Part shown: positions 63,087 to 63,344 of the stretch, piece by piece
Numbering within the stretch: the stretch's first letter is position 1
Layout of the letters: the number at the start of each line of letters is the position of its first letter
NCBI RefSeq assembly: GCF_045037415.1
Contig: NZ_CP173438.1
DNA length: 64,000 nt
Direction: 5' to 3' (one strand)
Source: Escherichia coli
Lineage (GTDB): Bacteria > Pseudomonadota > Gammaproteobacteria > Enterobacterales > Enterobacteriaceae
Notes under the pieces: model-generated
Told to the model about the DNA's origin: nothing
What the model saw: the letters and a program-made list of their open reading frames with translations, nothing else
The model's database searches: none
Translations under genes and position numbers: made by a program

Positions 63087-63213
63087 TATACTCGCCATAC
63101 TTCAAGTTGCATGTGCTGCGACTGCGTTCGTTCACCCCTGTCACTTACTTTAGTAAGCTCCTGGGGACTCACTCGCTTATCGCCTTCCTGCGACTTGAAT
63201 TATCTAGAGTATA
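63087..63213. repeat. ERIC (IRU) element
   Basis: ~127-bp imperfect palindrome; reverse complement contains gtgagtccccaggagcttac and aagtaagtgacaggggtgaacg, close to the ERIC1R/ERIC2 primer consensus regions; terminal tatactcg...agagtata. Confidence 0.7.
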
Positions 63214-63344
63214 TTATTCTATTTCTTGGTTGAATATATTCTGTAGTTCACAATTAAAAATTGCTATTACTGTTTCATGTGATTCACCTCGTAATTTCCG
63301 CTCATCAATAAACTCATCTCTTATATAAATCAACGCATCATTTA

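Follow-up and report, generated by a model that had tools for sequence, protein, structure and literature searches.

A palindrome of the ERIC/IRU type, a short run of AT-rich DNA and a type I toxin gene lie side by side between yehL and yehI in the Escherichia coli stretch analyzed here (the window: 64,000 nucleotides of contig NZ_CP173438.1, assembly GCF_045037415.1). The question raised by this arrangement is whether its parts form one accessory islet, as the original prediction had proposed, or are neighbors that have little to do with one another. The descriptive part of that prediction was accurate; i.e., a palindrome of ~127 bp (exactly 63087-63213) is followed by ~130 bp of AT-rich sequence (63214-63340), directly downstream of a toxin ORF that ends at 63032 and has its terminator at 63056-63078. 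For the origin of the arrangement, we consider it highly probable that two unrelated features touch at this point, namely, a single ERIC insertion that is decaying and is carried as a passenger, and the coding tail of yehK.

The window is collinear with K-12 MG1655 in reverse orientation, with a few small differences, and the RefSeq layout on the minus strand runs yehM, yehL, a 701-bp spacer, yehK (annotated as "frameshifted") and yehI. The 1.6 kb around 63087-63340 are 100% identical to those of EC958 (ST131) and of several hundred other genomes. The features discussed below are as follows:

62624-62699, minus strand: Orz antitoxin sRNA (Rfam OrzO-P, 98.6 bits against a gathering score of 60)
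62802-63196, no strand: 395-bp segment absent from the "orz-only" alleles of K-12 and BL21, starting at nt ~32 of the zor 5'UTR and ending within the right ERIC arm
62943-63032, plus strand: zorO type I toxin ORF (29 aa, MDTLTQKLTVLIAVLELLVALLRLIDLLK; identical to the published ZorO, PMC6669753)
63056-63078, plus strand: zorO intrinsic terminator (hairpin GGGGGAATACCGTTTCCCCC plus TTT, read from the sequence)
63087-63213, no strand: full-length 127-bp ERIC/IRU element, with TA dinucleotides at 63087-88 and 63212-13
63116-63123 and 63188-63195 (span 63116-63195), plus strand: 8-bp direct repeats CTGCGACT within the ERIC, with 72 bp between them
63214-63340, minus strand: AT-rich segment, the last 127 nt of yehK (codons ~63-105 and the TAA stop at 63214-63216)
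63214-63530, minus strand: yehK pseudogene, 317 nt against 318 nt when intact (RefSeq "frameshifted," allele alignment and ORF list)

An ordinary ERIC copy between yehK and zorO

In the window sequence, the element reads TATACTC...GAGTATA over 127 nt, and a repeat search finds its terminal arms (25 nt each) to be 80% complementary, making it an imperfect palindrome. Minimum-free-energy folding returns a single long hairpin on either strand, at -42.2 kcal/mol (z = -5.4) and -46.7 kcal/mol (z = -6.0), respectively, and none of 200 shuffles is equally stable. The ERIC2 and ERIC1R primer sequences each have one match, at 63129-63150 on the minus strand (20 of 22 positions, two mismatches) and at 63151-63172 on the plus strand (19 of 22, three mismatches), respectively. 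These sites are adjacent and divergent, back to back in the middle of the element, against a chance expectation of 0.00. The two are the standard ERIC-PCR primers, whose sites lie in the conserved central core.

ERIC-like copies are present in 5425 of 5426 complete E. coli genomes, at a median of 11 places per genome when counted in blastn mode, which is needed as megablast with the 127-bp element alone under-counts them (median 1). Two copies at unrelated loci were fetched and inspected and are 88-92% identical to that of the window: 92% for the copy in the preT-yeiS spacer of strain elppa9 and 88% for the copy in the LEE espG-ler spacer of O157:H7. Rfam contains no ERIC family, and its sole match on the element, to Vibrio V_AS5, lies below threshold (27.5 bits, where the gathering score is 96) and was not relied on.

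The element is intergenic, between the yehK stop codon and the zorO terminator, beginning 8 nt past the latter and leaving a 0-nt gap to the former. It is an ordinary ERIC/IRU copy. ERICs in general are considered to be MITE-like and non-autonomous, and no transposase is known for them (PMC2229807, PMC3184786, PMC10969869). A TA duplication is the expectation for this family (PMC2229807, PMC3184786), and the TA dinucleotides at either end of the window copy fit such a duplication. As with the ERIC/IRU/RU-1 elements of Enterobacteriaceae (Sharples & Lloyd 1990; Hulton et al. 1991; Wilson & Sharp 2006), the window copy is 127 bp long, has terminal inverted arms, TA termini and a TA target duplication, occupies an intergenic site in a 3' region (its transcription here being presumed), varies in presence or absence between strains, and has internally deleted and expanded variants. 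It displays no essential difference from the family; particular to it are the 0-nt spacing from the yehK stop codon and the type I toxin-antitoxin neighbor.

Elsewhere in the window, positions 33115-33117 of the preT-yeiS spacer correspond to an ERIC-empty target, with the 127-bp ERIC of elppa9 sitting exactly there. The flanking alignments of this empty/filled pair (window versus elppa9) overlap by 3 nt.

The AT-rich segment is the 3' end of yehK

At 29.1% G+C by windowed counting, against 51.3% across the window, 63214-63340 is conspicuous; only 0.16% of 127-nt windows are as G+C-poor, and there are four such regions within the 64 kb. This segment had been taken for accessory DNA. However, RefSeq annotation places it inside yehK, and it is the AT-rich C-terminal coding part (the 3' 40%) of this core gene. 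A yehK match covering at least 80% of the gene was found in 5203 of the 5426 complete E. coli genomes (96%), those lacking zorO included, whereas 192 have no yehK match; for the AT-rich half, this is the outcome that the original prediction had named as its refutation. The gene was also found in three further species-level lineages of Escherichia. The intact alleles of K-12, BL21, and O157:H7 encode 105 residues ending in ...NQEIE*, with the AT-rich part supplying residues ~63-105, and as their 3' segment also has 31% G+C, the low G+C content is a property of the yehK gene.

Between K-12 and E. whittamii, codons 61-105 differ with a pN of 0.038 and a pS of 0.211 (pN/pS ~0.18) and the N-terminal 60 codons with a pN of 0.151 and a pS of 0.492, values which mark the AT-rich part as the better-conserved half of protein-coding yehK. 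In other lineages, this part is under purifying selection. NCBIfam has no YehK model, and a full-text literature search on "yehK" yielded author-name noise only.

The window allele aligns to the intact alleles at 96.5% identity with a single 1-nt gap. This gap corresponds to one nucleotide missing from a C run (on the plus strand, the window reads GG at 63350-63351 and K-12 reads GGG). It leads to a premature TAA at 63345-63347, after codon 61, and 63214-63340, being downstream of the frameshift, is no longer in frame. The frameshifted allele is found at ≥99% identity in ~870-900 of the 5426 complete genomes, EC958 and AH21F008 among them. The AT-rich stretch is therefore core sequence that has recently become part of a pseudogene in the window lineage, and a useful correction is that this DNA is a core-gene tail, pseudogenized in the ST131-type haplotype.

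Two side observations concern yehK itself. Between AF57 and MG1655, synonymous divergence is 0.05 in codons 1-60 and 0.24 in codons 61-105, a pattern which suggests a recombination breakpoint inside the gene, with the 3' half possibly moving together with the ERIC/zor haplotype. In Escherichia sp. MOD1-EC7003 (L008:3281-3310), the yehK stop codon has been lost (TAA to GTT) and the ORF extends four codons into the ERIC (...QEIELYSK*), with the latter providing both the C-terminus and the stop; this allele also has a 15-bp in-frame deletion near codon 52-57, as does that of E. coli strain FAH.

A probable single insertion and its decay

Thirteen sequenced alleles, together with BLAST coverage classes, were compared. 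In E. whittamii and E. coli strain 2-1, the site is empty and reads TTTAATAAAC-TA-(T/A)TATTC or, over a longer stretch, ...CCCCCTTTAATAAAC-TA-(T/A)TATTCTATT...; the filled site has the flanks TTTAATAAAGC-TA-TACTC...GAGTA-TA-TTATTC and, in the window, AF57, FAH, and Escherichia sp. E1V33, reads ...TTTAATAAAGC-TA-TACTC...GAGTA-TA-TTATTCTATT.... Comparison of the empty with the filled state reveals a TA target-site duplication and places the insertion point at the TA directly after the yehK stop codon.

Outside E. coli, filled alleles occur in Escherichia sp. E1V33 and Escherichia sp. MOD1-EC7003, with the depth of the insertion within the genus being poorly sampled (a YehK search of genome contigs returned only three non-coli Escherichia loci, from species-level lineages). 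All filled alleles are alike in orientation, in position and in carrying an extra G in the left flank, from which one insertion event can be argued, and we infer that the ERIC beside yehK stems from a single old insertion, based on the alleles and coverage classes compared. The element would have inserted once at the TA immediately 3' of the yehK stop codon, between yehK and the terminator of the convergent zorO, either in an ancestor that E. coli has in common with two or more further lineages of Escherichia or with later exchange between them. Since then, it would only have decayed: some alleles gained a nested insert of 78-82 bp, others lost 72 bp between direct repeats, and a deletion of 395 bp would have taken zorO and most of the ERIC to leave the "orz-only" allele of K-12.

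Precise excision was considered as the source of the ERIC-free E. coli alleles and was rejected, as these have the AAAC left flank and single TA of E. whittamii, whereas filled alleles have AAAGC. Their yehK also ends in QLIEY* and not in QEIE*. Given their resemblance to the E. whittamii empty site, these alleles are most simply regarded as sites that were never occupied.

The remaining states differ in how much of the element is left. AH21F008 and Escherichia sp. MOD1-EC7003 carry a nested insertion of 78-82 bp at the same internal position of the ERIC, an insert that 649 of the 5426 genomes contain, mostly in a single copy. In O157:H7 and O104:H4, the ERIC is a short form of 55 bp, which keeps both terminal arms and still folds; a simulated 72-bp deletion between the CTGCGACT repeats reproduces the O157 form save for two substitutions. 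In K-12 and BL21, the last 19 nt persist, joined to nt ~32 of the zor 5'UTR. As read from these alleles, the five-state series of one ERIC, its empty site preserved, is a clean illustration of element decay and is useful as such.

The nested insert itself (AH21F008 L010:~900-985; MOD1-EC7003 L008:3385-3470) contains four small hairpins, one of which reads CCATGGATGG on the complementary strand and resembles an AYGGAY motif.

Across the 5426 complete genomes, an ERIC right end abuts yehK in 3842. The right half is full-length in 906, so that 17% keep the element whole, and full and short forms together account for 1953. By subtraction, and hence approximately, ~1047 genomes have the short form, ~1889 have the 19-nt remnant, and about 1360-1390 (~25-26%) have yehK without any ERIC end. 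The full-length form is mostly accompanied by the frameshifted yehK. For the toxin locus, zor lies in the yehK-yehL spacer of 3329 genomes, giving 61% with zor, ~35% with orz only, and ~4% with neither; these fractions agree with the 67%, 30%, and 3% published for a different genome set (PMC11264685).

The zor/orz neighbor and the orz-only deletion

The toxin locus matches zor/orz of O157:H7 (Fozo et al. 2010; Wen et al. 2014; Shore et al. 2024, PMC11264685) in its identical ZorO peptide, its OrzO-P sRNA and its divergent promoters, here a pair at 62713-62763 (TTGCAA/TATAAT). A 25-nt direct repeat (62687-62711 and 62852-62876, 88% identical) accounts for the complementarity of the sRNA to the zor 5'UTR, and the terminator hairpin is conserved across all zor-bearing alleles compared. 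Copy number of zor/orz varies between strains (PMC11264685), with one copy in the window against two in EDL933, and the published classes (none, orz-only, one, two; PMC11264685) match the coverage classes in the 5426 genomes.

Relative to the window, K-12 lacks the 395-bp segment at 62802-63196; however, it retains orz, the zor promoter, and the 19-nt ERIC end, which identifies it as a deletion state and not as an empty attachment site. The published "orz-only" allele retains 27-29 nt of the zor UTR (PMC11264685). In the zor/orz literature searched, there is no mention of ERIC, yehK, or yehL, and an orz-only deletion ending inside an ERIC arm is not reported; such an ending is thus a small addition to the zor/orz story.

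The two ends of this deletion fall inside an inverted repeat of 8 bp, formed by TTCAAGTC (62800-62807) and GACTTGAA (63192-63199). Among random endpoint pairs of the same spacing, such a repeat was encountered in 125 of 200,000 (6e-4), a value to be read in light of the repeat having been noticed post hoc in one event. A hairpin-assisted deletion is thus a lead and not a finding. The stronger proposition, that the ERIC was the structural cause of toxin loss through TTCAAGTC/GACTTGAA pairing, or else serves as a ribosome-dependent switch of yehK decay, strikes us as doubtful, albeit worth keeping in mind. If true, excision of the 395 bp would have removed zorO and produced the orphan-antitoxin (OrzPmg) allele found in ~35% of E. 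coli, including K-12 and BL21.

Some further observations were made on the locus. The window zor/orz (62624-63078) looks mosaic relative to the two O157:H7 copies (L004), its Orz/UTR pairing region resembling the yehL-proximal copy (orzP/zorP) and its terminator GGGGGAATACCGTTTCCCCC resembling the yehK-proximal copy (zorO); this would fit a tandem pair having collapsed through unequal crossover as well as a single copy that is ancestral. Separately, NZ_CP026085.1 (L002), labeled DH5alpha, differs from MG1655 and the other derivatives of K-12 in that it carries zor/orz twice and its yehK is ERIC-free. The label is probably wrong, and with its two zor copies, the sequence was rejected as a K-12 representative.

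Islet, RNA element, or passenger

The yehK-yehL spacer is structurally variable. It is 306 bp long in both K-12 and BL21 and 574 bp long in strain 2-1, against 701 bp in the window and 1182-1240 bp where zor/orz is present twice, and some strains have IS1 insertions nearby or in the spacer itself. To this extent, the proposal of a variable hotspot stands, as the ERIC occurs in full, short, remnant, and absent states; what it does not capture is that these are mostly deletions within one old insertion and not the outcome of repeated insertion. A single islet of ERIC, AT-rich DNA, and toxin locus, gained and lost as a unit at an insertion hotspot, could draw on this 4-fold range of spacer lengths, on the nearby IS1 copies and on the joint loss of the toxin and most of the ERIC in K-12 as one 395-bp block, yet we judge it very improbable. 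The AT-rich part is yehK coding sequence and is retained with or without zorO, the K-12 state is a deletion, and zor/orz occurs without the ERIC in E. whittamii and in ~1375 E. coli genomes (~25%), such that the ERIC and the toxin locus do not behave as one unit. Between yehL and yehI, moreover, there are no mobility genes, integrase, tRNA, or direct-repeat/attachment-site boundary. In this segment, only the ERIC and the toxin locus vary between E. coli strains, and spacer variability would thus be explained by decay of one ERIC together with the published zor/orz copy-number changes, as opposed to a mobile islet. Similarly, the AT-rich stretch could be construed as a regulatory or foreign non-coding segment, e.g., an H-NS-bound or promoter region, as its G+C content is in the lowest 0.16% of the window and its in-frame translation is lost in the window strain. 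This is hardly credible, as a consensus scan gave no promoter-like site in 63214-63340, in intact alleles its reading frame continues without a break from the 5' part of yehK, and nonsynonymous change is five-fold below synonymous change.

A functional role for the ERIC is another reading, which we regard as unlikely. As a working RNA element, the hairpin in the yehK 3'UTR would set the stability of the yehI-yehK message, with a terminating ribosome melting the first arm and thereby making an RNase E site accessible, in line with what has been proposed for the ERICs of Yersinia. The element might also shield the yehK and zorO transcripts, which converge, from one another. In Yersinia, ERICs at gene 3' ends reportedly modulate mRNA decay, a result ascribed to De Gregorio et al. 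in 2005. The likeness to these elements, as far as it can be read from sequence alone, lies in an ERIC directly past a stop codon, a hairpin, and presumed co-transcription with the upstream gene; the difference is that the upstream ORF of the window is truncated 128 nt before the element. According to reviews, ERICs placed directly after stop codons alter mRNA stability in Yersinia (PMC2229807, PMC3184786, PMC10969869), and this precedent is joined by the very stable hairpin on both strands, the 0-nt spacing from the yehK stop codon, the retention of the full-length element in E. coli as well as in two further lineages of Escherichia, and the folding of the 55-bp form with both its arms. Beyond these points, nothing computed lent the RNA-element reading support. 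Against this reading, about three-quarters of yehK-bearing genomes are without a full ERIC, ~26% either never had it or cleanly lost it, and the full form mostly accompanies a frameshifted yehK, with which a ribosome-dependent switch cannot operate.

On the yehK transcript, the ERIC would be a 3'UTR hairpin of -47 kcal/mol starting from the first base after the stop codon. As only 17% of genomes keep the element whole, and in most of these yehK is frameshifted and the ribosome never arrives, we judge the ERIC to be a neutral or nearly neutral passenger, the more so in the window, where yehK is a pseudogene and ribosomes would stop 128 nt upstream. From the pattern of decay, we infer that its most likely function is none beyond forming the 3'UTR hairpin. 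Survival of the full-length form across lineages and folding of the short form could nevertheless reflect weak selection on the hairpin. The arrangement matters little: ERICs and their presence/absence and length variants are textbook knowledge, and zor/orz variability is published.

Other departures from the K-12 layout

The original prediction had also described the ERIC, the AT-rich DNA, and the toxin locus as the only stretch of the window that departs from a conserved core layout; this was too strong, as other departures from K-12 were found. In the yohP-dusC spacer (window 37710-37981), ~272-300 bp are inverted relative to their flanks when compared with K-12, at 89% identity. This segment belongs to a dispersed repeat, for which the median per E. 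coli genome is 3 places and the maximum 8, and has a sub-threshold Rfam match to TwoAYGGAY RNA (28.4 bits, where the gathering score is 43). In place of the fruA-psuK spacer, the window carries 350 bp (8521-8870) that contain REP sequence and do not match K-12, and the psuK-rihB block that follows (window 8871-14269) is only 90% identical to K-12. Finally, ~1.24 kb of K-12 (nupX) are missing from the window.
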